Virus record (IMG/VR): IMGVR_UViG_2728369393_000005
Direction: 5' to 3' (one strand)
DNA: 39,238 nt
DNA from: a virus
Lineage: Duplodnaviria; Heunggongvirae; Uroviricota; Caudoviricetes
Part shown: positions 2,321 to 27,839 of the stretch, piece after piece
Layout of the letters: each line of letters begins with the position of its first letter
Position numbering within the stretch: position 1 is the first letter of the stretch
The notes under the pieces: generated by a model
What the model was told of the DNA's origin: nothing
Seen by the model: the letters and a program-made list of their open reading frames with translations, nothing else
Database searches by the model: none
Translations under genes and position numbers: made by a program

Positions 2321-3238
2321 TTAAAAATCAGCCTGACTCGGGATCAGTTTTTGCCAGATAGCTGAAACGTATTTTGCCTGGTAACGAGCGTCATCAAGTG
2401 CATTATGGTGCTCACCTTCGAATGGGATAGCAGTTCTGGCATCGAAGTCTATGGCTTTCCCCAGCTCAACGATTGTGCGTACATCGCGATCGTTGCTGTA
2501 GCGCCACGGGCAGGGGATACCCTGTCGTTCGTATGAACGGCGTAAAATCACGTTGTCGAAGTTGGCCCCATTACCCCAGACCTGAACAAAAAATTCACCG
2601 GAGTTTTCGTCGATAAATTCCCGCAATTGCAGTAGTGCATCATCTAACGGGATTTCATCGGTCATAATGGCAGACTGCGCTTCACGTGATTGCTTCAGCC
2701 ACCATTTAATGACGTCACGATCAATGACTCCGCCAGCAGTATCCAGATCGATGGTCTTGCTAAATTCTGGTCCCATATCTCCGGTTTGCGGATCGAAAAA
2801 TATTGCGCCTATTGAGATAATCGGGGCATCGGGATTTTTTCCCATGGTTTCAAGGTCGATCATCAGATGAATCCCCGCTCTGCTGGTGGATGTGAGATTA
2901 TGATGACTGTTCGCCTTAATTAAGGGATCTGACGCCTCGCCAGTTTCACTATCGCTGGCATGATGCTGATTGCCGCCAGTGTTCTCCTTGTGCTGATGTG
3001 CAGTACCTTCCATTTCCTCCGGATCATTTTCCTGAACTTCAGGCTGATTCTCTTCATCGAATATTTCCTGGTATGTTGTGTCACCCATCACCGCGCCACA
3101 ATCAGGGCAGTTGCCGCCACCGCTCTGACCGCAGGCGGTGCAGACTTTTTCCGGTTCCTGTTGCTGGCTCGCTTGCAATATCTTTCCCGATTTCTCGCAG
3201 CACAGAATGCAATGTATGAGCTGCTGTTTTCTGTACAT
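2321..3238 (-). CDS. DEDDh (DnaQ-like) 3'-5' exonuclease with N-terminal Cys4 zinc-ribbon and acidic linker
   Basis: Motifs MIDLETMG, WGNGANFDNVIL and HNALDDARY fit Exo I/II/III of DEDDh exonucleases; N-terminus has CxxCC ... CTACG ... CPDCG cysteines followed by an acidic low-complexity stretch. Confidence 0.7.
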   Translation of the reverse strand: MYRKQQLIHCILCCEKSGKILQASQQQEPEKVCTACGQSGGGNCPDCGAVMGDTTYQEIFDEENQPEVQENDPEEMEGTAHQHKENTGGNQHHASDSETGEASDPLIKANSHHNLTSTSRAGIHLMIDLETMGKNPDAPIISIGAIFFDPQTGDMGPEFSKTIDLDTAGGVIDRDVIKWWLKQSREAQSAIMTDEIPLDDALLQLREFIDENSGEFFVQVWGNGANFDNVILRRSYERQGIPCPWRYSNDRDVRTIVELGKAIDFDARTAIPFEGEHHNALDDARYQAKYVSAIWQKLIPSQADF

Positions 3239-3274
3239 CAGACGGTAAATCTTTAAATTCCATCGTCAGCCTCA

Positions 3275-3520
3275 TCAGTCAGTGTTTCTGGCTAACCAGC
3301 AACGCGCGCCAGATTCGGTTTTAAACGTTTTGCTTTTGGTATATGTCATCGCGGTGAACGTACCGCCCTGGTTGGGGAACACGCCGTACACCAGAGATTC
3401 GTTGTTGCCAAGATCGATAGTATCCATGTTGACCTCATTTCCCCTTAACGCCGGGGTAGCGGAACTGTTTGCTGAGAACACCGTGCGGTGTCTTGATGGA
3501 TCGTAATTTAGTTTTCTCAT
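3275..3520 (-). CDS. Hypothetical early leftward-operon protein (81 aa)
   Basis: ORF on the same strand as the exo/xis/int operon; start codon embedded in one of the operator-like ATGAGAAAACT motifs; no recognisable domain. Confidence 0.5.
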   Translation of the reverse strand: MRKLNYDPSRHRTVFSANSSATPALRGNEVNMDTIDLGNNESLVYGVFPNQGGTFTAMTYTKSKTFKTESGARCWLARNTD

Positions 3521-3557
3521 GAATATTGGTCAAGTGCTTTTGATGAGAAAACTCAAT
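3503..3557. promoter_or_regulatory. Operator-like inverted repeat (OL-like) downstream of the repressor gene
   Basis: ATTTAGTTTTCTCAT (3506..3520) and ATGAGAAAACTCAAT (3543..3557) form 14/15-bp inverted arms separated by 22 bp; same core GAGAAAACT recurs at 4010..4018 (minus) and 4079..4087. Confidence 0.4.
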
Positions 3558-3618
3558 ATTTAATGCAAAATAAAGCCAATACATTGAAATGTAAGGCTTT
3601 AAAATTTGTGAAGGGGGG

Positions 3619-4026
3619 TTATTGATGTTTGTTACGTTTGCGAGCTTCTAGTAGCTCGGTGAATAGGCGATTAAAATTCTCAACGCGGGCACGGAGTTCG
3701 CTGATTTGTGCTTGCTGCTCTGATTTTGGAAGTGCGCGATACAATCGCAACATCTCCAACTCATCTTCCGATAAGTCTAAGGCGCTGTTGAGTGCAACTG
3801 GTGGATCTGGTGTTTTATCCTCGTCACCAAACAGTATCCAAGTTGGTGAACATTGCAATACCTCAGCCAGGCGATGCAAATTTTGCCCGCGCGGGGCTGT
3901 ATGGTCGCTTTCCCATAGTGAAATTGATGAGCCAGATACGCCAGCAGCTTTGCTTAAATCGTTTTGACTTAAACCAACCTGTTTGCGTCTTTCTCTAATT
4001 CGTTGACCTAAAGTTTTCTCGTTCAT
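3619..4026 (-). CDS. XRE-family HTH repressor (135 aa, no S24 peptidase domain)
   Basis: N-terminal LGQRIRERRKQVGLSQNDLSKAAGVSGSSISLWE is a classic Cro/CI-type helix-turn-helix; divergent from the cro-like gene. Confidence 0.8.
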   Translation of the reverse strand: MNEKTLGQRIRERRKQVGLSQNDLSKAAGVSGSSISLWESDHTAPRGQNLHRLAEVLQCSPTWILFGDEDKTPDPPVALNSALDLSEDELEMLRLYRALPKSEQQAQISELRARVENFNRLFTELLEARKRNKHQ

Positions 4027-4048
4027 ATTTAGATATCTTAATAACCCT

Positions 4049-4091
4049 TGACTTGAGATTCCTTGAGTGATTACTATTGAGAAAACTCAAC
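4049..4091 (+). promoter_or_regulatory. Rightward promoter/operator (pR/OR-like): -35 TTGACT, 17-bp spacer, -10 TACTAT, TTGAG half-sites
   Basis: TTGACT at 4049..4054 and TACTAT at 4072..4077; TTGAG at 4053, 4063 and 4077 (about 10-14 bp apart); TTGAGAAAACTCAA at 4077..4090 has palindromic arms. Confidence 0.45.
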
Positions 4092-4103
4092 TTTGGAGGG
4101 GTG

Positions 4104-4331
4104 ATGTTTAAATCAGACGTAATTAATTTTTATGGGACGAAAGCCAAAGTAGCGAAAGCTGCTGGTGTTGATCCATCTGCTGTTTCTCAATGGGGGGAAC
4201 TGGTTCCTGAAGGTCGCGCGATGCGCCTGCAAGAGGCATCCGGCGGGGAACTTCAGTACGACCCCAAAGTTTATGACGAATATCGTAAGGCAAAGCGGGC
4301 GGGGCGGTTGAACAATGAAAATCACCCCTGA
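4104..4331 (+). CDS. Cro-like HTH regulator (75 aa from ATG 4104; ORF track starts at TTG 4077)
   Basis: GGAGG Shine-Dalgarno at 4095..4099 before ATG 4104; KAKVAKAAGVDPSAVSQW is HTH-like; divergent from the repressor. Confidence 0.65.
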   Translation: MFKSDVINFYGTKAKVAKAAGVDPSAVSQWGELVPEGRAMRLQEASGGELQYDPKVYDEYRKAKRAGRLNNENHP

Positions 4332-4866
4332 ACAGGTTTGTGAGGCTCTGGATGCCTGGGTATGCCGACCAGGAATGACACAGGAGCAGGCGACGATATT
4401 AATCACGGAAGCATTCTGGGCTCTGAAAGAACGCCCGAACATCGATGTTCAACGCGTCACGTTTAATGATGGCGAGGTTGATCAACGGGCGCTGTGCGTT
4501 AACCGGGTGAAGATATTCGAACGCTGGAAAGCTATCGACACCAGGGATAAGCGGAAAAAATTCACGGCGCTGATTCCGGCAATTATGGAGGCTATCCGAA
4601 TTAGTGATTTCAGGCTGTATCGTGAGATCAGTGATGGAAAAAGCATTACGTACATGATCGCCGGATTAAACAAAGAATATGGCGATGTGGTGGAGTCCGG
4701 GCTGCTTTTTGCGGATCCATCTGTTGTGGAACGTGAGACTGACGTGCTTATAGAAAAAGCTATTGCTTTCAAGCATGCGTATCGTCAGCAATATCAATAT
4801 TACTTTGCAGATAAACAAATGTCTGCCAGGGGTTCGTATGAGTATCGATGCACTACGATGGGCTAA
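4315..4866 (+). CDS. Hypothetical early protein in the cII position (183 aa; possibly YdaT/CII-like regulator)
   Basis: ORF between cro-like and replication genes; start overlaps the cro-like stop; no motif I can name with confidence. Confidence 0.45.
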   Translation: MKITPEQVCEALDAWVCRPGMTQEQATILITEAFWALKERPNIDVQRVTFNDGEVDQRALCVNRVKIFERWKAIDTRDKRKKFTALIPAIMEAIRISDFRLYREISDGKSITYMIAGLNKEYGDVVESGLLFADPSVVERETDVLIEKAIAFKHAYRQQYQYYFADKQMSARGSYEYRCTTMG

Positions 4867-5878
4867 AAAGGTGAAAACCGGCAGTTCATCCAGTAAGTCT
4901 GTATTGACCTGGCTTGCTGATATGTGCGGTGCCGATTTGTGTGCATACCCGTCTGTATCTGCACTGGCAGAAGTAACGGAACTGAACAAAAAGACTGTGC
5001 AGGACAGCTTACGACACCTGATGGAGATTGGGTTAATTGTTGATACCGGTGAGAGAAAAGGCAGAACAAAGCAAATTGTGGTGTACCGACTTATCGGTGT
5101 AGAAGAAAGTGTTGCCGAGCCTGAATACACCCAAAAACGGGAGTCTTTAAAGGTGGGTAAAATCGGTGCTGTTAATAAAAACAGTACCGAAAATGGTTAT
5201 GTTTCAGCACAAAACAGACCCAAAAACGGAACTCTTAGCTGCATGGAAAATAACCAAAGACACCCAAATTTTCCATCAAAGACACCCAAAAACGGATCAC
5301 GGAACCCAAAGGAACCCAAAGAGCTAAACCCCACACATAACGCACGCGAGAGTGCTCCGACCAGTGAGCAGAAAGTTTTGTCGTTACAGGCTGCACCTCC
5401 TGTATTCCTGGATGGCCTGAGCGAACCCATCGAAAAATTTCCGATGACCGATAGCTGGTATCCGTCACGGGATTTTCGACGACGGGCTGCGTTGTGGGGG
5501 ATGGCTTTGCCGGAGACAGAATTCACACCTGCTGAACTTGCCGCCTTCCGGGACTACTGGGCTGCTGAGGGGAAAGTGTTTACGCAGATTCAGTGGGAGC
5601 AGAAATTCGCCCGTCACGTAAATCACGTCAGGGCGCAGGTTAAACCAGTCAGCAAGGGGGTAAACCATGCAGCAGCACCAGGTGACACCGCATCACGGGC
5701 AGTTCAGGAAATTCGGGCAGCACGTGAGCAGTGGGAACGTGAAAACGGATTTATCAGCGACGGAAACGGCCTGGAAGCTGTGGGAACTCATGGGGGAGGT
5801 TTATTCGAACCGCTGGACCCAGAAGAACGGGGCCGCACCTTCGAAGCTCTGGATTGCACAGATTGGTGCGATGACTGA
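4838..5878 (+). CDS. Replication initiation protein, O-like, with N-terminal winged helix (3' end uncertain)
   Basis: MSIDALRWAKKV ... LAEVTELNKKTVQDSLRHLMEIGLIVDTG resembles phage replication-initiator N-termini; the last ~70 codons overlap the P-like gene and may be frameshift read-through after the G5 run at 5656..5660. Confidence 0.55.
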   Translation: MSIDALRWAKKVKTGSSSSKSVLTWLADMCGADLCAYPSVSALAEVTELNKKTVQDSLRHLMEIGLIVDTGERKGRTKQIVVYRLIGVEESVAEPEYTQKRESLKVGKIGAVNKNSTENGYVSAQNRPKNGTLSCMENNQRHPNFPSKTPKNGSRNPKEPKELNPTHNARESAPTSEQKVLSLQAAPPVFLDGLSEPIEKFPMTDSWYPSRDFRRRAALWGMALPETEFTPAELAAFRDYWAAEGKVFTQIQWEQKFARHVNHVRAQVKPVSKGVNHAAAPGDTASRAVQEIRAAREQWERENGFISDGNGLEAVGTHGGGLFEPLDPEERGRTFEALDCTDWCDD

Positions 5879-7999: not shown

Positions 8000-8551
8000 T
8001 CAAATCTTCCACATTGCAGGAGATTTGAGTATGAATACGTCACCGAGGAACAAAGACAGTATCATAGGCCCAAAAAGACCACTTCAGATATCTCATATCT
8101 GGGGGCTCCAAATCCGGCTTGAACTGGAAGGTAAAACGCGTGATTTAGCTCGGTTTCAAGCAGAGCTACGGTGCTGCAACTGAAAAACTGGCAGTCCTAT
8201 CCAATTTGAGATAACCAAAGGGACAAGAGAAGCTGTTTCTGCATTGATAAAGCTTGGCAATTTACGCAGTAAAGACTACTTGTTCCGATCTCGGGTCGGT
8301 ACTAACCAACACATATCAATCCTGCAATATAACCGAATCTTTCATAGGAGGGAGAAAAGCTTGGTCTCGAAGATTCGCTTTACAGCACACATTCCATGAG
8401 AAGAACAAAACCTTGCCTTGTCTGCAAGAAAACTAAGAATCTCCGGGTGATCCAACTTCCGTTGGGCCATAAGAAAACGGAAAGCACAGTTCGTTATCTG
8501 GGTATAGAAGTTGATGATGCATTAGAGATCTCTGAATCGATCGAAGTCTAA
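8000..8551 (+). pseudogene. Decayed tyrosine recombinase gene (fragments in three frames)
   Basis: Fragments KDYLFRSRVGTNQHIS, ALQHTFHEK and LRVIQLPLGHKKTESTVRYLGIEV-stop (ends 8551) resemble recombinase box II and the C-terminal LGH-x8-Y catalytic tyrosine region, but lie in different frames. Confidence 0.45.
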
Positions 8552-8963: not shown

Positions 8964-10337
8964 ATGAAAAGACTATATTATACCCATCATGATAGTCGAA
9001 CCTTAAAACTTGCTATAGAAGGTGATGTTTCTGATAATGCGAATATTTTTACAGTAATTGTAGGTAAAAATGGCGTTGGAAAAAGCAGATTGTTATCTCA
9101 GATTGCTAAAGACTGTATTCAAGATGTTCATTTCTTGAAAACTTTTAATCCATTATTTGACAGAGAAATAACACCAAAGTTAATTGCCGTATCTACCAGC
9201 CCATTCGATAAATTCCCTCCAGGGCGTAGGTCATTAAATCACCAAAGGAAAGAAAATAATTATCGCTATGTGGGTATGCGTGGAGAAGGCCCCTTCGGCG
9301 TATCAAATGCCGTATCCCTTTTATCTTCAGCAGCGAGAGGTTGGCTAGAGAAACTTGCTTATTCAGAAAATCCTGCAAATTTACTCGATGTTTTTCATTC
9401 TATTGATTTTGAGCCCCATATAGAGTTTGTATTTAAACCAACTTACAACGGACCGGACACTCCTGACTATAACTTCATTGGTGTATATTCAGATGAGATA
9501 TTAACGGAAGTTAAGGAGTTATATTTAAAATACAATATAAAAATTGACAGGAAGAATATTGAGAGTCTCTTAAAGTTAAACTCCGAATCACGTCATGATA
9601 TTTACGAAGCACTGGTTGAAATTAATCGATTTGAACCTGAACGTAGGGCTGTAACCTTGTCAGTCGATTTTACCAATGGTGAAACATTGGTTGGCTCGAC
9701 TTATGCGAATAATTATTTTTCTAGATCAATTCTTAAACTTATGAACGCTGGCTTCATGAGATTGATGGATATGCGACTCATAAAAAAAAGCTATGGTCCC
9801 ATGTCACTTAAACGTGCGAGCTCGGGAGAACAATGTTTATTAGTGATGTTGCTTGGAATTGCAGGGCATATAACTGATGGTTCTATAATACTAATTGATG
9901 AACCGGAAATAAGCTTGCATCCTCGATGGCAGGAAGAGTTTATCATTATGTTAACAAAAGCATTTTTAACTTACTCAGGTTGTCAATTCATAATTGCAAC
10001 TCATTCACCACAAATAATATCCAATTTGCCGAATAAAGGTTGTTATATAACATCTTTGTCGAAAAGTTATCTTTATAAAGCAAAATACTTTAGCAACCGG
10101 TCTGCAGACTATCAACTTGCGGAACTATTTGATGCCCCTGGCATTATGAATGAATACATTGCCAGATTAGCTTTCAATTTACTTTCAAAAGTTAAGACTG
10201 CTAAGTTAGTAACAGATGATAATTGGCGTGAATTAAAACAACTCCAGCTTCTCCTTGAAAACGTTAATAGTAATGACCCTATTAATGAACTCGTAAATTC
10301 CGTATCTCAGGTGTGTGAAATTTATGCCAAAAATTAA
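8964..10337 (+). CDS. ABC-type (AAA_21/SMC-like) ATPase, 457 aa; PtuA-like candidate
   Basis: Walker A VGKNGVGKSRLL, signature-like SSGEQ, Walker B IILIDEPEISLHP, H-loop IIATHSP; stop overlaps the start of the downstream HNH gene. Confidence 0.75.
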   Translation: MKRLYYTHHDSRTLKLAIEGDVSDNANIFTVIVGKNGVGKSRLLSQIAKDCIQDVHFLKTFNPLFDREITPKLIAVSTSPFDKFPPGRRSLNHQRKENNYRYVGMRGEGPFGVSNAVSLLSSAARGWLEKLAYSENPANLLDVFHSIDFEPHIEFVFKPTYNGPDTPDYNFIGVYSDEILTEVKELYLKYNIKIDRKNIESLLKLNSESRHDIYEALVEINRFEPERRAVTLSVDFTNGETLVGSTYANNYFSRSILKLMNAGFMRLMDMRLIKKSYGPMSLKRASSGEQCLLVMLLGIAGHITDGSIILIDEPEISLHPRWQEEFIIMLTKAFLTYSGCQFIIATHSPQIISNLPNKGCYITSLSKSYLYKAKYFSNRSADYQLAELFDAPGIMNEYIARLAFNLLSKVKTAKLVTDDNWRELKQLQLLLENVNSNDPINELVNSVSQVCEIYAKN

Positions 10338-10959
10338 AAATCCAATTAGATTCAGCGCAGAGTCATTAGATATTATTGAGAAAAAATTGTCTTCTCCAGA
10401 TTTTAAGCATACCAACTGGGGAGATGATGATTTGCAAGTTCTCCGTGCAGAAATTAGAAATCATTACAGAGAAGAACAAAAGCTAGAATGTGTATATTGT
10501 CATGAGCCTATTGGGGTAAGAGCTGCACAAGCTGCTCCTATAGAGCATATTGTGCCAAAATCTCAATATCTATGTTTTATTTTTGAACCTAAGAATCTAT
10601 GTGTAGTATGTCCTGACTGCAATGAATTCAAAGGTAAAAATGAAGTGTTATTTGAACCCGTAATAAATGGGGGGCGGCGCAAAAACTATCCAACTGCATC
10701 TGCATCATTTCGCATCGTTCATCCACATATAGATGATTATGAGATGCATATTATAAAAGCAAATCGTGTTTATGTGGACAAAACACCTAAAGGGCACTAT
10801 ACCATTGGAATATGTAAACTAAATAGATTTTTTCATTATTTTGGGATGTGTGATGAATTTGTTAATGATGCAAAAATTGCTGAGGCAAATGAAAATTTTT
10901 TCAAAAAAGGTAGTATTACTACTAATGAATTATTGGATGATGACATTCATTTGATTTAA
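10324..10959 (+). CDS. HNH endonuclease, about 212 aa; PtuB-like candidate
   Basis: CVYCHEP ... EHIVPKS ... CPDCNEFKG gives the CxxC-H ... H ... CxxC HNH zinc-finger pattern; ATG 10324 overlaps the ATPase 3' end by 14 nt (GTG 10315 by 23 nt). Confidence 0.75.
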   Translation: MPKIKNPIRFSAESLDIIEKKLSSPDFKHTNWGDDDLQVLRAEIRNHYREEQKLECVYCHEPIGVRAAQAAPIEHIVPKSQYLCFIFEPKNLCVVCPDCNEFKGKNEVLFEPVINGGRRKNYPTASASFRIVHPHIDDYEMHIIKANRVYVDKTPKGHYTIGICKLNRFFHYFGMCDEFVNDAKIAEANENFFKKGSITTNELLDDDIHLI

Positions 10960-11517: not shown

Positions 11518-11785
11518 GTTTTTATTTTCAACGCGTTTGAAGTTCTGGACGGCGCCGGAATAGAATCAAAAATACTTAAGTAGCGCGCAGGGATAAGAGG
11601 GATGGTCCCTTAAAGGGGAGAGCTAATTATCCGGAAGGATTCTGATGATGAACATCGAAGAACTGCGTAAAATTTTTTGTGAAGATGGCCTCTATGCTGT
11701 GTGCGTTGAAAATGGAAATCTTGTTAGTCATTACCGCATTATGTGTTTGCGAAAGGTAAGCGTCAACGGAGCACCGTATTGACGC

Positions 11786-13401
11786 TTATTTATTGGTGAG
11801 TACTACGTTCCATGGCAGGAGTTCATCAACTCGGTTGGAAGGCCATTCCGGCAGTACGCTCAGGATATGGCGCAGATACGCTTCCGGATCGATACCGTTC
11901 AGACGGCAGGTGCCGATCAGCCCGTACAACAGTGCTCCACGCTCGCCGCCGTGATCGCTGCCAAAGAACATAAACTTTTTCTTTCCGAGACAGACTGCAC
12001 GAAGCGCTCTTTCCGCAGCATTATTATCCGCCTCCGCCAGACCGTCATCACTGTAATAACAGAGGGCATCCCACTGATTCAGTACATAGCTGAACGCTTC
12101 GCCCAGTCTGGATTTTTTCGACAGCGTACCATTCTTCTCCACCATCCATTCATGCAGCGACGTCAGTAACACTTTGCTTCGCTGCTGCCTGACGGCAAGA
12201 CGCTCTGACTCCGGTAATCCCCGTATTTCATCCTCGATGGCGTACAGTTCACTGATTCGCTTCAGGGCTTCTTCTGCCGTCGCACTTTTGCTGCTGATGT
12301 ATACATCGTGGATTTTTCGCCGGGCATGGGCCCAGCACGCAACTTCTGTCAGTGCACCACCTTCACGTTCTGCACTGAACAACCTGTCGTAACCTGTGAA
12401 CGCATCCGCCTGCAGGATACCCCGGAAGGGGCGGAGGTGTTGCTCCGGGTGTTTCCCCTGCCGGTTCGGCGAGTACGCGAACCAGACCGCTGGAGGAGAT
12501 GACGAACCCACATTGCGATCATCCCGGACATACGTCCAGATACGCCCTGTTTTCGCCTTTTTCTGACCCGGTGCCAGTACCTTTACCGGTGTGTCATCAG
12601 TGTGAACCTTGCGGGTGTTCATTACATAACGGTACAGGGCATCATTCACCGGTGTCATTAACTGGCAGCACGCGTCAACCCAGTTGGAGAGTAAGGCCCG
12701 GCTCAGTTCGACACCCTGGCGGGCAAAGATTTCACTCTGACGATACAGTGGCAGATGTTCGCAGTATTTTCCCGTTAACACGCGGGCAAGTAATCCGGGG
12801 CCCCCGCGATACCACGCTCTATCGGGCGGGACGGCGCCGGTGCTTCAACAATACAGTCACATTTTGTACAGGCTTTTTTTACCCGTTCTGTGCGGATCAC
12901 TTTCAGGGCACTGCTCACCAGTTCCAGCTGTTCAGCGCTGACTTCCCCCAGATAATCCAGCTCACCGCCACACTCCGGGCAACAGCTTTCTTCTGGCTCC
13001 AGGCGGTGTATTTCTCGGGGAAGGTGTGCCGGTAACGGACGACGATGGCGCGACTGTCGCAACTGGCGGGGAACCTGAGGATCGTCTTCCCGCCCACTGT
13101 AACGATCGCTGTCCTGTTCACGTTGTTTCAGCAGAGCCTCAGCCAGTTCAACTTCACGACGCAGTTTTTCAGAACGGGTACCGAACAGCATCCGGCGCAG
13201 TTTTTCTATCTGAGCCCGCAGATGTTCTATTTCCCGTTCATCTTCTTCGATCTTTTCTTCGGCACGTGTCAGTGCAGAGCGCAGGAAGGCTTCCGTCTCT
13301 TCAACCAGACTCAGTTGCTGGTCTTTCTGACGGAGGGCTTCAGCCTGCTCAGAGAGCAATCTTTCCAGCTCTGCGATGCGAATGAGGTATTTCTGACTCA
13401 T
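11786..13401 (-). pseudogene. IS66 transposase TnpC, split by a frameshift at a G/C homopolymer (12797..12805)
   Basis: N-terminal fragment 12775..13401 (Cys-rich zinc-finger CCPECG ... CTKCDC) and C-terminal fragment 11786..12781 (GKYCEHLPLYRQ ...) together equal a full-length TnpC. Confidence 0.75.
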
Positions 13402-13431
13402 GACCGTTTTTATAATGCGGTCAGGAGTTTT

Positions 13432-13782
13432 TTACAACATTGTCAGTGAGTTACGGCTGGATGTTTTTGGCTGACGCCAGTCCAGCTTATCGAGGAGCAT
13501 TGCCAGTTGCGAGCGGGTAATGGATACCTTGCCGTCACGTACCGCAGGCCAGATAAACTGGCCTTCCTCCAGGCGTTTGGTGAACAGGCACAGACCATCA
13601 GCATCAGCCCAAAGAATTTTGACGGTGTCACCCCGTCGGCCACGGAAGATAAACAGGTGACCGGAGAAGGGATTATCATTCAGCACATGTTGTACCTGTT
13701 CTCCCAGTCCGTTGAAGGATTTACGCATATCGGTAACGCCGGCAACGAGCCAGATACGGGTACCTGATGGGAGTGAGATCAT
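13432..13782 (-). CDS. IS66 family TnpB (Orf2)
   Basis: 116-aa ORF (MISLPSGTRIWLVAGVTDMRKSFNGL ...) typical of IS66 Orf2, upstream of tnpC. Confidence 0.8.
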   Translation of the reverse strand: MISLPSGTRIWLVAGVTDMRKSFNGLGEQVQHVLNDNPFSGHLFIFRGRRGDTVKILWADADGLCLFTKRLEEGQFIWPAVRDGKVSITRSQLAMLLDKLDWRQPKTSSRNSLTML

Positions 13783-14204
13783 CTTCCCCTCCCGGTCAGT
13801 TCACGGATCAACACCGTGAGCAGCTCTGGCGATGGATTTTCCAGCGTCATGTTACCGTGACGGAATTCCACCTTGCAGGAACTGGCACTGACTCTGGTCT
13901 GAGTGGAAGTGGATAAAGACGGCGCAATGGCCGCCACAGGTTCTTTCTGCTCATCCGGCGTTATTTCTACAGGTAATAATTCAACGCCAGTGTCAGAAGA
14001 GGTCGTTACCGGAAGACGCCGCGAAACACGCCCTTCGTTCTGCCAGAGCCTGAGCCATTTGAAAATAACATTATCATTGACGCCATTTTCACGTGCAATC
14101 TGTGCAACACAAGCTCCAGGTTGTGATGCCAGTTCCACCATACGAAGTTTGAATTCATTCGAATAGTTTTTACGAGGTTCTTTTCGCCAGTCCTGTAATT
14201 CCAT
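13779..14204 (-). CDS. IS66 family TnpA (Orf1, HTH)
   Basis: 141-aa ORF overlapping tnpB by 4 nt; first gene of the IS66 operon. Confidence 0.75.
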   Translation of the reverse strand: MELQDWRKEPRKNYSNEFKLRMVELASQPGACVAQIARENGVNDNVIFKWLRLWQNEGRVSRRLPVTTSSDTGVELLPVEITPDEQKEPVAAIAPSLSTSTQTRVSASSCKVEFRHGNMTLENPSPELLTVLIRELTGRGR

Positions 14205-16227: not shown

Positions 16228-16449
16228 ATGGCAAAAATCCGATATCTGCAGGGTACACATGATGCCCGGCCCGGGGATATCCGGGATGTCGCACAGCCGT
16301 GTGCGGAGGTGCTGGTTCGCCTGGGAAAGGCGGAGTACATCACGGTGCGACGTCCGGCAGGTCAGAAAAAGAAACGTGATGCGGAGCATGGCGAATGTGG
16401 AACCTTTTACGGCGAACCCGAAAAAACCAGAAATCAGGACGTGACGTAA
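16228..16449 (+). CDS. Hypothetical small protein (73 aa), doubtful
   Basis: ORF in the gap between capsid and portal genes; overlaps the portal start region; no motif. Confidence 0.25.
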   Translation: MAKIRYLQGTHDARPGDIRDVAQPCAEVLVRLGKAEYITVRRPAGQKKKRDAEHGECGTFYGEPEKTRNQDVT

Positions 16450-17758
16450 GAGAGGCGGGCTGGACCAGCCTGTTTCAGGCGGTGGCTGAGCCCTTTGCCG
16501 GCGCCTGGCAGCAGGGTGTGAAAGCCGATCCGGAAAGTGTCCTCTCCTTTCATGCGGTGTTTTCTTGCATTTCGCTGATATCCCAGGATATCGCCAAAAT
16601 GCGGCTGCGCCTGATGCAGACGGATACACAGGGGATCCGCCGTGAAAAACGGCAGGGGGATATTGCCCGTCTCTGTCGTCGTCTCAATGCACAGCAGAAT
16701 CGTATCCAGTTTTTTGAACTGTGGCTGAACGCCAAACTGCGTCACGGCAATACGGTGGTGCTGAAAATCCGTAACTCCCGGGGCAGATCAAAGAACTGCG
16801 TATTCTGGACTGGAGCCGGGTTGAACCTCTGGTGGCGGATGACGGCGAGGTGTTCTATCGCATCACGCCGGACCGGAACTGCGGGATCACGGAGGCGGTG
16901 ACGGTGCCTGCCCGGGAAGTGATCCACGACCGGTTTAACTGTTTTTTTCATCCGCTTGTGGGGCTGCCGCCGGTGTATGCCGCCGGGCTGGCGGCCACGC
17001 AGGGGCATCATATTCAGGAAAATTCGACGTCTTTTTTCAGAAATGGCGGCAGGCCGTCCGGGGTGATTGAGATCCCCGGCAGTATTACGGAAGAAAATGC
17101 GAAAAAACTGAAGAGCAACTGGGACAGCGGGTATACCGGCGAAAATGCGGGGAAAACGGCCATTCTGAGCAACGGAGCAAAATACAACCCCACGACGTTT
17201 TCACCGGTGGATGCGCAGACGGTGGAACAACTGAAGATGACCGCTGAAATTGTCTGTTCGGTGTTCCGTGTCCCGGCCTACAAGATTGGCGTTGGCCAGC
17301 CACCTTCCAGTGACAACGTGGAGGCGCTGGAGCAGCAGTATTATTCCCAGTGCCTGCAGACGCTGATTGAGTCCATTGAACTGTTACTGGATGAGGCGCT
17401 GGAAACGGGGGAAAACGAGAGTACGGAGTTTGACGTCACCACGCTGCTGAGAATGGACAGCGAACGTCGCATGAAAACGCTGGGTGAATCGGTGAAAAAT
17501 ACGCTTCTCACGCCCAATGAGGCCCGTAAACGTGAGAACCTGCCGCCCCTTGCCGGCGGTGATGCACTGTATCTTCAGCAGCAGAACTACAGTCTGGAGG
17601 CGCTGTCCCGTCGTGATGCCCGTGAGGATCCGTTCGCGTCTTCCGGGAAAACGTCGTCAGGCACACGCCAGGAGGGCGCGTCTGACGGTAATAAGGCCAT
17701 AAGCGAAACAGAGCGTGATGCGGTGAAGGCGATGTTCAGGGGGATACTGCGAAAATGA
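16395..17758 (+). CDS. HK97-family portal protein, interrupted by a frameshift near 16775..16790 (CCCGGGG run)
   Basis: Fragments 16395..16901 and 16832..17758 join into one portal-like protein; GKTAILSNGAKY ... VDAQTVEQLKMTAEIVCSVFRVPAYKIG is a portal signature. Confidence 0.7.
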
Positions 17759-18978
17759 CAGAGCGTGAACTGTCCATTATCCGTGCGCTGGGTGAAGAAT
17801 TCTCCACGGTGCTGGCGGATTTACAGCGCACATTTGAGGGGAAGATGGCCTCGCAGGCACAAGCGTTTGAAGAGAAACTGACTTCCCTGTCGGCGGTATT
17901 ACAGAAGCATGTGACGGTGGATGAGGTGCGTCCGGTTCTGCAGGCGATGGTGGATGACGCTGTGGGGGCCATTCCGGTACCGCGTGATGGTCGTGATTAT
18001 GATCCGGATGTACTGCAGCAGGCGGTGAATGATGCGGTTGCGAATATTCCGGTACCGGCGGACGGCAAAAGTATTACCCCGATGATGTGCGTCCGATGCT
18101 TGAACAGATGGTGAAGGAGGCGGTAAGCCATATTCCTGTTCCGCGTGATGGTCGTGATTACGATCCGGAAGTACTGAAGCAGGCGGTGAATGATGCGGTT
18201 GCGAATATTCCGGTACCGGCGGACGGCAAAAGTATTACCCCCGATGATGTGCGTCCGATGCTTGAGCAGATGGTGAAAGAGGCGGTAAGCCATATTCCTG
18301 TTCCGCGTGATGGTCGTGATTACGATCCGGAAGTACTGCAGAAGGCGGTGAATGATGCGGTCGCGAATATTCCGGTACCGGCGGACGGCAAAAGTATTAC
18401 CCCCCGATGATGTGCGTCCGATGCTTGAACAGATGGTGAAAGAGGCGGTAAGCCATATTCCTGTTCCGCGTGATGGTCGTGACTATGATCCCGATGTTCT
18501 GCAGAAGGCTGTTCTGGAGGCGGTGAGAGCCCTGCCGGCTCCGCAGGACGGGCGTGATGCCACGGCACTGGAAATAATCCCCGCCATTGACGATCAAAAA
18601 TCCTTTCCCCGGGGCACGTATGCCACACACCAGGGCGGACTCTGGCGGGCGTATGAAAAAACGCACGGGATGCGGGGATGGGAATGCCTGGTTGACGGGG
18701 TGGCCGATATTGACGTCAGCATGACCGGCGAACGGTCGTTCACTGTGGTGGTCCGGCAGAGCAGTGGCCAGCGTACGGAAAAAACATTTTCCCTGCCGGT
18801 GATGCTCTACCGCGGTGTGTTCAGAGCCGGTGAAACCTACCACCCCGGTGATACGGTGACGTGGGGGGGCTCGCTGTGGCACTGCAACAGTATGACCGGT
18901 GATAAACCCGGAGAAGCTCATTCATCAGGCTGGACCCTGGCTGCCAAACGTGGACGGGATGCAGGAGGCGGAAAATGA
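17755..18978 (+). CDS. Head-module protein with tandem 54-aa repeats, broken by two frameshifts at C-runs
   Basis: Three ORF fragments (17755..18114, 18087..18410, 18352..18978) share the repeat VRPMLEQMVKEAVSHIPVPRDGRDYDPEVL ... ANIPVPADGKSITP; C-run is C4, C5, C6 in successive repeats. Confidence 0.55.
17920..18567 (+). repeat. Tandem coding repeats, unit about 162 bp, 3 full copies plus a divergent partial copy
   Basis: Units 17920..18080 (161 bp), 18081..18242 (162 bp), 18243..18405 (163 bp), then a degenerate copy; length differences are confined to a poly-C tract. Confidence 0.8.
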
Positions 18979-27571: not shown

Positions 27572-27839
27572 AAGCGAAAAAATCCCGCAGTGCTCACGGA
27601 CAGGAACTGCGGGAGAGTTACGAAGATTGAGTGTAAGGAATTATTCTTATGTCACGACAAAAACATTAACGCAGAGAAATTATACGCGCCACAGTCAGTT
27701 TGTGAAAATGTGAAGATATTCAGAATTTCTTCTGTAATAGAAATACATTCAGAGAGGGAGGATGTGCCGTTCTTTTCAGGGAGAAAGGATTTATCGTCCT
27801 GAGGAATAAAGGTAAGGGGCCTGCCCCTTACCTGACTGA

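Follow-up and report, generated by a model that had tools for sequence, protein, structure and literature searches.

Predicted operators at both early promoters of a DicA/DicC-type immunity region in a degraded Escherichia coli lambdoid prophage

Introduction

In E. coli K-12, the Qin repressor DicA binds the operator Oc in vivo, and a single base change abolishes this binding (PMC3441716). From Oc, DicA represses dicC and activates dicA; Om and Oa by themselves were not bound by DicA in vivo (PMC3441716). The dicC promoter was mapped by 5'RACE (PMC3441716), and the DicA site located there was also recovered by Reg-Seq; the location of the DicA site at the dicB promoter is listed as unknown in the latter work (PMC7567609).

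Here we analysed a DNA stretch of 39,238 nucleotides (IMG/VR record IMGVR_UViG_2728369393_000005; hereafter the window): a lambdoid prophage of E. coli, now degraded, located at tRNA-Ser/mtfA. Like Qin, it carries an immunity region of the DicA/DicC type, which encodes a repressor of 135 aa, a DicC resembling P22 Cro and a YdaT-like CII. Among 5426 complete E. coli genomes, about 800 contain at least 80% of this region. DicA-type OL/OR arrangements are ordinary, well understood examples of textbook lambdoid regulation. The operator sequence of the window, wTGAGAAAACT[C/A]Ar, has apparently not been described before: a literature search for the motif strings found it in no paper of the library searched and returned unrelated primer sequences only. 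Going by the comparative evidence presented below, sites of this sequence are very probably the operators of the immunity switch and are placed at both of its early promoters.

Results

The repressor matched the NCBIfam DicA model NF007257 over residues 1-135 of 135 (238.3 bits, cut-off 101) and was 53-55% identical to the two aligned DicA homologues, those of PPompW and K-12. Its N-terminal domain aligned with P22 C2 (PDB 1adr and 2r1j; E = 2e-15 and 8e-15), residues 1-72 on residues 1-72, colinearly and without gaps, carrying G, S and L where P22 C2 has N32, V33 and Q37. Pfam assigned only HTH families to the 135-aa protein and detected no LexA/S24-type autocleavage domain in it. The Cro-like DicC matched NCBIfam NF007282 over its full length (167.6 bits, cut-off 130) as well as P22 Cro (PDB 1rzs).

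A preliminary description of this region had reported four copies of the core GAGAAAACT around the repressor gene. Four copies are indeed present between 3510 and 4087, at coordinates up to 2 nt away from those first given: 3510-3518 and 4012-4020 on the minus strand, 3545-3553 and 4079-4087 on the plus strand. An unrelated fifth copy lies within a CDS (38703-38711). The expectation for the whole window is 0.29 copies, and five copies were reached in none of 100 shuffles. Allowing up to two mismatches, TTGAGNNNNCTCAA had 21 matches in the window compared with 18.05 in shuffles; five of them fell inside 3507-4090, where our own arithmetic gives about 0.3 for a stretch of that length. We also recovered the inverted pair at 3506-3557, with exact 11-nt arms and 22 nt between them, TTGAGAAAACTCAA at 4077-4090, and the TTGACT/TACTAT promoter (4048-4053 and 4072-4077). 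An 18-nt similarity between 3510-3527 and 4012-4029 was judged coincidental, its non-operator part being variable in relatives. An exact 14-mer scan of IMG/VR hit at least 120 stretches, mostly unrelated environmental contigs, and was uninformative: in so large a collection, 14 nt are too short a query.

The proposed overlap of the motifs with three start codons proved not to be meaningful. The 81-aa ORF reaching 3520 is an artefact with a spurious start: its ATG (3518-3520) sits between the -35 and the -10 of the PL-like promoter and does not share the frame of the real start in 47 of 76 relatives, Pfam DUF1391 covers just residues 33-79 of the 81, and PGAP places the gene at 3275-3427. The TTG at 4077 is only a mechanical ORF start, the cro-like gene beginning at the ATG at 4104. 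The copy assigned to 4010-4018 in the region of the repressor start codon exists, but 2 nt further on and within codons 3-5 rather than on the start codon. Coordinates are collected in Table 1.

Table 1. Genes, promoters, predicted operators and hairpins of the immunity region, and the rem remnant
Feature	Position	Strand	Description
ydfA homologue (DUF1391, 50 aa)	3275-3427	-	first gene of the PL operon; PGAP
5' leader of the PL transcript	3428-3498	-	conserved; common to different immunity classes
PL-like promoter (dicBp equivalent)	3505-3533	-	TTGACC, 17-nt spacer, TAAATT; consensus
OL-B, predicted operator	3507-3520		minus strand ATGAGAAAACTAAA; 21.4 bits, PWM rank 3
OL-A, predicted operator	3543-3556		ATGAGAAAACTCAA; just upstream of PL-like -35; 22.5 bits, PWM rank 2
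Terminator-like hairpin, then AUUUUG	3566-3608	-	after the repressor stop, before OL
DicA-family repressor, 135 aa	3619-4026	-	N-terminal HTH, no autocleavage domain
Fourth copy of GAGAAAACT	4009-4022	-	ACGAGAAAACTTTA; inside repressor codons 2-6, core 4012-4020 in codons 3-5
Oa (OR3 candidate)	4028-4041		TTTAGATATCTTAA; within an 18-bp near-palindrome, 4026-4043
PR-like promoter of cro/dicC	4048-4077	+	TTGACT, 18-nt spacer, TACTAT; consensus; homologous to the mapped K-12 dicC promoter
Om (OR2 candidate)	4053-4066		TTGAGATTCCTTGA; between -35 and -10 of the cro promoter
Oc (OR1), strongest predicted operator	4077-4090		TTGAGAAAACTCAA; outer 5+5 bp palindromic; 24.1 bits, PWM rank 1
Cro-like DicC, 75 aa	4104-4331	+	Pfam P22_Cro, E = 1.1e-17
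YdaT-like CII-equivalent protein	4315-4866		
rem antirepressor gene, truncated	11645-11773		C-terminus missing; PGAP; ISEc23 directly after

Three of the copies belong to strong 14-bp sites, Oc, OL-A and OL-B, which share the consensus given above. These sites are retained in eight lineages with repressor identities down to 75% (75-84% in the diverged ones), while their flanks diverge, and positions 2-11 and 13 of the operator are almost invariant over 24 sites. When a PWM built from the other lineages only was scored over 78450 window positions, the three sites took the first three ranks, the next match scoring 14.4 bits. Matches at 8083-8096 (11.7 bits) and 8206-8219 (14.4 bits) lie inside a frameshifted integrase pseudogene and were treated as chance. 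Among 83 same-immunity relatives, operator columns carried 0.3 variant haplotypes per column (OL-B columns: 0.21) and other intergenic columns 5.3 (Mann-Whitney p = 9e-12, a statistic that takes haplotypes as independent, which they are not).

In other DicA classes, different palindromes occupy the same positions and recur in the OL of the same class, for example TTAG-N6-CTAA and TAAC-N4-GTTA (Oc palindromes were picked across loci within a fixed range of offsets). The operator class tracks the repressor helix (S[G/D]SSISLWESD versus SHVSVSQWERG and others) and also the Cro helix (DPSAVSQW versus RLASLYSW and others). This comparison of homologous immunity regions, in which the three strong sites are kept in diverged lineages of the same class, supports the earlier suggestion of OL and OR operators around the repressor gene. 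A dimer of the DicA-family repressor would recognise each 14-bp site through TTGAG/CTCAA half-sites set round an invariant A4 centre.

On the right, Oc adjoins the -10 of the cro promoter and spans its predicted transcription start, so that repressor bound there would block rightward lytic transcription. It begins 29 nt past the start of the -35, compared with 30 nt for K-12 Oc (TTGTTAGTCATAACTAACAA), and its position is homologous to that of K-12 Oc. By analogy with K-12 DicA, the repressor at Oc may also activate its own weak promoter, which comes without a Shine-Dalgarno sequence.

Two weaker candidates in OR had been overlooked. With the centres of Oa, Om and Oc at 4034.5, 4059.5 and 4083.5, the sites are spaced 25 and 24 bp apart, Oa and Om being weak compared with the 24 bits of Oc. 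In Om, only the left half-site matches the consensus, with two mismatches in the half-sites; the site is conserved within the class, yet scores only 0.5-6 bits, and we assign it to the repressor with low confidence. Oa lies directly upstream of the repressor ATG, itself without a Shine-Dalgarno sequence, is conserved across all lineages of the class, is invariant in 24 haplotypes and ranks sixth of the 78450 positions (11.9 bits). Oa-like sequences are alike across different immunity classes, and a promoter element or a Cro site therefore fits as well as a repressor site. Oa would be a natural site of action for Cro/DicC, or for the repressor itself to limit its own synthesis when its level is high. 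Together, Om and Oa would complete a lambda-like tripartite OR; this model stands on a weak footing, because neither K-12 counterpart is bound by DicA on its own in vivo. The TTGAG half-sites reported to repeat around the promoter with roughly helical spacing were found to start at 4053, 4063 and 4077 (spacing 10 and 14). The second is unconstrained, its last base, G4067, being polymorphic among same-immunity relatives.

On the left, OL-A has the same position in all family members, and OL-B, 36 bp away, fills the spacer of the PL-like promoter and overlaps its -10. Paired OL sites 34-36 bp apart that flank the -35 are a family-wide feature; the 36 bp correspond to a non-integral number of helical turns. 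By bracketing the -35 and covering the -10, OL-A and OL-B would control a promoter predicted to drive the ydfA homologue and the exonuclease, xis and int genes. Its predicted start lies near 3498, where family-wide sequence conservation sets in, and the leader contains one hairpin with two compensatory pairs. The terminator-like hairpin behind the repressor gene is conserved (-12.3 kcal/mol, z = -4.3). An Rfam search of 3200-4400 returned only a sub-threshold match to mir-16 (E = 0.067; 22 bits, gathering score 36.5), so the inverted pair and the leader are unexplained by a known RNA family.

Discussion

Our findings point to three strong repressor operators, one at the cro promoter and two at the PL-like promoter. 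We considered whether the fourth copy of the core is also a working operator, a roadblock or looping partner 67 bp from Oc that would give the repressor negative autoregulation. By our estimate, chance alone would place an exact 9-mer match within about 600 bp with a probability of about 0.005, and in the L229 lineage (repressor 81% identical) synonymous differences bring the site nearer to the consensus (ATGAGAAAACTCTA, 12 of 14 positions). However, its half-sites are poor (ACGAG/CTTTA), and with 7.5 bits it ranks only 24th in the window. The copy is confined to two lineages in which the protein starts with MNEKT; of the seven diverged lineages that share the operator class, five lack it, their proteins beginning with NEMT, NEIT, SEMT or GEMT. 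Close relatives have the same protein sequence, which accounts for the invariance of the copy among them, and inspection by eye of this region in the other DicA classes showed no counterpart. A four-site arrangement is therefore unlikely, and the fourth copy, doubtful as an operator, is probably incidental. Its more specific form, a lineage-specific intragenic operator for autoregulation, appears quite unlikely to us, as does the separate idea that the A4-centred operator is read asymmetrically. If the former were true, the repressor could block or loop its own transcript; if the latter, the operator, with its strictly invariant and oriented A4 centre, would not be a simple palindrome.

The three strong sites might instead be bound by the Cro-like DicC alone, or by some other factor, with the DicA-like repressor playing no part. 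The Cro recognition helix follows the operator class just as closely as does the repressor helix, which speaks for this reading. Against it, operators are common to repressor and Cro in lambda and P22. Moreover, DicA binds the homologous site of K-12, mutation of which titrates or abolishes the action of DicA (PMC3441716), and it exerts strong repression on dicBp, the counterpart of PL (PMC10448788). We consider it very unlikely that the repressor has no part in these sites, and DicC probably binds the same sites as the repressor.

It is highly improbable that the inverted pair works not as two protein sites but as a DNA cruciform or as an RNA hairpin serving attenuation or processing. Its arms extend over 18 nt (3506-3523 and 3540-3557) with 89% complementarity and would be part of any read-through transcript of the repressor gene. 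On the other hand, the same 13-mer occurs unpaired at OR, the loop holds a consensus -35 and the 3' arm the -10, and the hairpin is not followed by a U-run, a separate terminator hairpin preceding it. In addition, the arms in lineage L226 differ at their centres (TTTT and ATAT) without compensation, and Rfam offers no credible match. The YdaT-like protein as the binding factor is extremely improbable: the inverted repeat TTGATT-N6-AATCAA bound by CP-933P YdaT (PMC9986795) is of similar flavour, but its spacing is unlike (TTGA-N10-TCAA, against TTGA-N6-TCAA here), the sites lie on PR and PL and not in a PRE-like position, and the operators co-vary with the repressor and Cro helices.

With DicA-type repressor operators as the preferred reading, induction of the prophage would need a Rem-type antirepressor, because the repressor lacks a cleavage domain. 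The rem gene of the window is cut by an IS element, which may have locked the degraded prophage in the repressed state. A LexA-box search of the window gave a sole perfect match (5169-5184), inside the replication gene region and far from rem; SOS control is therefore without evidence.

The immunity type of the window is common and is present too in the viable phage mEp460_ev081. The operator consensus should allow immunity groups to be assigned among DicA-type prophages and cross-immunity to be predicted between resident cryptic prophages and incoming phages, and would aid the design of titration or reporter experiments. For K-12, the family comparison points DicA at the dicB promoter to two sites flanking the -35.

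The locus shares with Qin of K-12 the order of its elements (dicC/cro and dicA in divergent orientation, followed by a PL-like promoter and ydfA), a 135-aa repressor with a conserved C-terminal half, a P22-Cro-like DicC, an operator at the same offset on the -10 of the cro promoter, a leftward -35 flanked by two sites and the ydfA leader. A Rem antirepressor gene is annotated in the prophage too, truncated by ISEc23 in the window. In contrast, the recognition helix differs, as do the operators: TTGAG-AAAA-CTCAA (14 bp) here and TTGTTAGT-N4-ACTAACAA (20 bp) in K-12, the outer TTG/CAA positions of which are not conserved in the window. Furthermore, the PL operon of the window lacks dicF/dicB and runs into the exonuclease, xis and int genes. 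The functional temperate phage mEp460_ev081 and HannyBb have the same OR and OL operators in a region 91-92% identical in DNA sequence but different spacers between the sites, and the repressors of the mEp460-type loci L205 and L206 are 96% identical to that of the window. Unlike the degraded prophage, mEp460 is viable and retains dicB in its PL operon.

P22 has a C2 N-terminal HTH and a Cro homologous to the proteins of the window. Its operators consist of 5-bp half-sites of the TTAAG type round four central bases, the geometry seen in the window, and its OR is tripartite with a spacing of about 24 bp. The window differs in its TTGAG half-site, its invariant A4 centre and a repressor without the C-terminal S24 autocleavage domain of C2. 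The operator of phage 434 is likewise 14 bp long, and in both operators indirect readout of the central tract is probable. With lambda, the locus has in common divergent repressor and cro genes, three OR sites about 24 bp apart (Om and Oa being candidates in the window), a strong site on PR, a weak site adjoining a leaderless-type repressor start and a second operator cluster on PL. It departs from lambda in having only two clear OL sites, 36 bp apart, and a repressor of a different family, and in the proposed induction by antirepressor instead of RecA-mediated cleavage. Finally, the antirepressors of the Salmonella Gifsy repressors GfoR and GfhR are LexA-controlled, in contrast to the window with its distant LexA box; the repressors themselves, short, non-cleavable and inactivated by antirepressors, resemble the type described here, a likeness as drawn in PMC10448788.

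Immunity genes and probable operator sites

The repressor of the prophage passed the NCBIfam DicA model at full length, as did the Cro-like protein the DicC model. It was 53-55% identical to two aligned DicA homologues (those of PPompW and of the Qin prophage of E. coli K-12), with the similarity mostly in the C-terminal half and a divergent helix-turn-helix (HTH) region. The solved N-terminal domain of P22 C2 aligns gap-free with its first 72 residues.

Four copies of the core GAGAAAACT lie in and around the repressor gene [3510-3518(-), 3545-3553(+), 4012-4020(-) and 4079-4087(+)], where 0.29 would be expected in the whole window; one more copy, at 38703, is unrelated. The repeated motif of the preliminary description was thus recovered, at the sites proposed but with exact positions shifted by up to 2 nt. 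Three of the copies lengthen into 14-mers, the probable operators that we call Oc, OL-A and OL-B (Table). The half-site pattern TTGAGNNNNCTCAA with up to two mismatches matched five times within 3507-4090, compared with approximately 0.3 expected for a stretch of this length by our arithmetic from a shuffle mean of 18.05 per window. Two of these matches, the candidate sites Om and Oa, are absent from the preliminary description.

Features of the immunity region (window positions)
Feature	Position	Strand	Remark
DUF1391 (ydfA-like) gene, 50 aa	3275-3427	-	downstream of repressor; PGAP, Pfam
PL leader	3428-3498	-	
Leftward promoter	3533-3505	-	TTGACC-17-TAAATT; reads leftward
OL-B	3507-3520	-	ATGAGAAAACTAAA
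OL-A	3543-3556		ATGAGAAAACTCAA
Terminator-like hairpin	3566-3608	-	
HTH repressor, 135 aa	3619-4026	-	
Oa (OR3 candidate)	4028-4041		
Rightward promoter	4048-4077	+	TTGACT-18-TACTAT; reads into cro
Om (OR2 candidate)	4053-4066		
Oc (OR1)	4077-4090		TTGAGAAAACTCAA
P22-Cro-like protein (DicC), 75 aa	4104-4331	+	
YdaT-like CII equivalent	4315-4866	+	

A consensus scan of 3400-4150 found exactly two sigma-70-like promoters, and the three strong sites lie on them. Oc begins where the rightward -10 ends, sharing one base with it, and covers the predicted start site; OL-A lies immediately upstream of the leftward -35, and OL-B spans the spacer and -10 of the same promoter. The stretch from the repressor stop codon to OL contains a conserved hairpin resembling a terminator (AAAGCCUUACAU...AUGUAUUGGCUUU, then AUUUUG; -12.3 kcal/mol, z=-4.3), by which the repressor transcript is kept apart from the PL operon.

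The leader of approximately 70 nt that follows the PL-like promoter is near-identical across different immunity classes with different first genes downstream (the window, L003, L002, L212-L215, L208 and L219). In its distal hairpin (CCCC...GGGG) two pairs are compensatory, and more distant relatives (L216-L218, L220) carry a boxB-like stem with a GAAAGA loop at this position. Rfam gave no match to the leader. Its possible roles are antitermination, as a nutL- or put-like element, or processing.

Conservation of the strong sites

We collected seven further lineages with the same recognition-helix type, VS[G/D]SSISLWESD: mEp460 and six more diverged ones, namely L207 from Buttiauxella (repressor 75% identical to that of the window) and the IMG/VR loci L226-L231, retrieved at 77-84% repressor identity to L207 (L229: 81% to the window). 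This comparison of homologous immunity regions, called for by the preliminary description, found Oc, OL-A and OL-B in all seven, while the sequence between the sites had diverged. Counting the window, the eight lineages together have 24 strong sites, in which positions 2-11 and 13 were almost invariant (consensus wTGAGAAAACT[C/A]Ar). A weight matrix built solely from the remaining lineages, with the window and mEp460 left out, placed the three window sites at ranks 1-3 of 78450 positions (24.1, 22.5 and 21.4 bits), the next-best match scoring 14.4 bits.

Matches to this matrix at 8083-8096 (11.7 bits, palindromic, TTCAGATATCTCAT) and 8206-8219 (14.4 bits), 120 bp apart, sit within a frameshifted second integrase pseudogene and are probably due to chance.

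In 83 relatives whose repressor is essentially the same (24 OR and 42 OL haplotypes), substitutions were concentrated between the operator sites. Operator columns had a mean of 0.3 variant haplotypes compared with 5.3 in other intergenic columns (Mann-Whitney p=9×10−12, to be taken as indicative, the haplotypes being non-independent).

Co-variation with the regulators

In other DicA classes, the palindrome found at the Oc distance from the -35 has another sequence, and the cognate OL contains sites of the matching class: TTAGTyATrACTAA inside a 20-mer in K-12, TTAG-N6-CTAA in PPompW, L212 and L214, and TAAC-N4-GTTA in L218 and L219. Mismatches between Oc and OL numbered 0-3 in cognate or same-class pairs versus 4-6 in most other pairs, and the centres of the two OL sites were 34-36 bp apart in every locus compared. 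Operator class follows the repressor helix and, equally well, the Cro helix, which is G(V/I)DPSAVSQW in all eight TTGAG-class lineages, GIRLASLYSW in K-12 and GVRLASVAAW in PPompW. Judged from sequence, co-variation with both helices is characteristic of an immunity module whose two regulators would read the same operators.

The fourth copy and the start codons

The copy at 4012-4020 forms codons 3-5 (Glu-Lys-Thr) of the repressor and lies outside the conserved switch. It could be a functional auxiliary site, and the L229 version is nearer to the consensus (12/14), but we consider this unlikely: in the 14-bp frame (ACGAGAAAACTTTA) its half-sites are poor (7.5 bits, rank 24), it is limited to the two lineages whose protein starts MNEKT (the window group and L229), and it is missing from five lineages starting NEMT, NEIT, SEMT or GEMT. 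The copy is probably incidental.

The overlap of the motif with three start codons, pointed out earlier, carries no biological content. We rejected the 81-aa ORF [3275-3520(-)] as an artefact of an in-frame ATG in OL-B, since PGAP and Pfam favour the 50-aa gene. Its start (3518-3520) sits inside OL-B between -35 and -10 and hence precedes the predicted start of transcription. Of 76 relatives, 47 have a 1-nt indel that shifts this ATG into a frame other than that of the real start, and eight others have the same leader followed by a different gene. TTG 4077, likewise rejected as a gene start, simply opens a mechanical ORF, and cro starts at 4104.

The weaker sites Oa and Om

Oa falls within an 18-bp near-palindrome (4026-4043), ranks sixth in the window and has an unchanged sequence in every haplotype and lineage of the TTGAG class. 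The repressor ATG (region 4024-4045), immediately preceded by the Oa palindrome, lacks a Shine-Dalgarno sequence in every DicA class examined, an indication that the repressor mRNA is leaderless or nearly so, as is that of lambda cI from PRM. Because Oa-like sequences are also found across classes and Oa abuts this ATG, it may also serve as the promoter region of the repressor, in the manner of OR3/PRM.

At Om, the cognate left half-site lies right behind the -35 in every class, and the full-site match is poor. The middle TTGAG half-site previously proposed (4063-4067) is under no constraint, G4067 being replaced by A in many relatives. The centre spacing of Oa, Om and Oc (25 and 24 bp) is close to that in lambda.

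State of the prophage

The window, which E. coli CFSAN004176 contains in identical form, is a lambdoid prophage inserted at a tRNA-Ser gene, adjoining mtfA. Its nearest phage records are mEp460_ev081 (92% DNA identity) and HannyBb (91%), with PPompW phages at 70%. According to PGAP the prophage is decayed: integrase and portal genes are frameshifted and the exonuclease gene is partial, tail-completion genes are also frameshifted or partial, and the early-right region carries the IS66-family element ISEc23.

Virulence cargo is still present (sodC, an Ail/Lom-family protein, an NleG-family effector, DUF1076-domain proteins and the EspW effector, the gene of which is itself frameshifted). This cargo and the damaged integrase, portal and exonuclease genes lie in regions 1009-2059, 2321-3238, 16393-18977 and 27839-38464. 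A Septu anti-phage defence system at 8964-10959, between the replication genes and hokD, is also cargo; its AAA ATPase and HNH endonuclease have overlapping reading frames (PADLOC: PtuA, E=1e-165; PtuB, E=1e-83).

A standard repressor/operator mechanism is most likely. Repressor dimers on Oc would switch off rightward lytic transcription and, aided by Om and Oa or through handover to Cro at these sites, set the repressor/cro balance, and dimers on OL-A and OL-B would switch off the leftward operon. Because the repressor has no cleavage domain, induction would require an antirepressor. In Qin this is encoded by rem, whose product relieves DicA repression (PMC10448788). Here rem is cut after 43 codons, directly abutting the ISEc23 insertion (PGAP; 11645-14202 for rem and insertion together), and therefore the prophage has probably lost its own induction trigger, with repressor and operators intact.

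Comparison with the DicA switch

In alignment, K-12 Qin, PPompW and mEp460 have the same architecture as the window. The common order at OR is repressor ATG, Oa palindrome, TTGAC, Om half-site, -10, strong Oc palindrome, Shine-Dalgarno sequence and cro; at OL, downstream of the repressor, it is a palindrome, CAAAA, TTGAC, a palindrome overlapping the -10, and the conserved leader (CATCAAGACACCGCACGG...). K-12 Oc (TTGTTAGTCATAACTAACAA) occupies the position equivalent to Oc of the window. It is a DicA-binding site in vivo and ceases to be one after a single A-to-C change; DicA on Oc represses dicC and activates dicA, while the neighbouring Om and Oa alone do not bind DicA (PMC3441716). The DicA site at dicC was also recovered, independently, by Reg-Seq, in a paper that gives the binding location at dicB as unknown (PMC7567609); dicBp, the PL equivalent, is strongly repressed by DicA, which the antirepressor Rem counteracts (PMC10448788).

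The OL/OR arrangement first proposed is therefore upheld by sites on both early promoters, the Oc-homologous position, conservation within the class and co-variation with the helices. In the literature searched, to which this statement is confined, we found no earlier account of this operator sequence. From comparison of sequences, the TTGAG class would be a new operator specificity within a known, experimentally characterised kind of switch.
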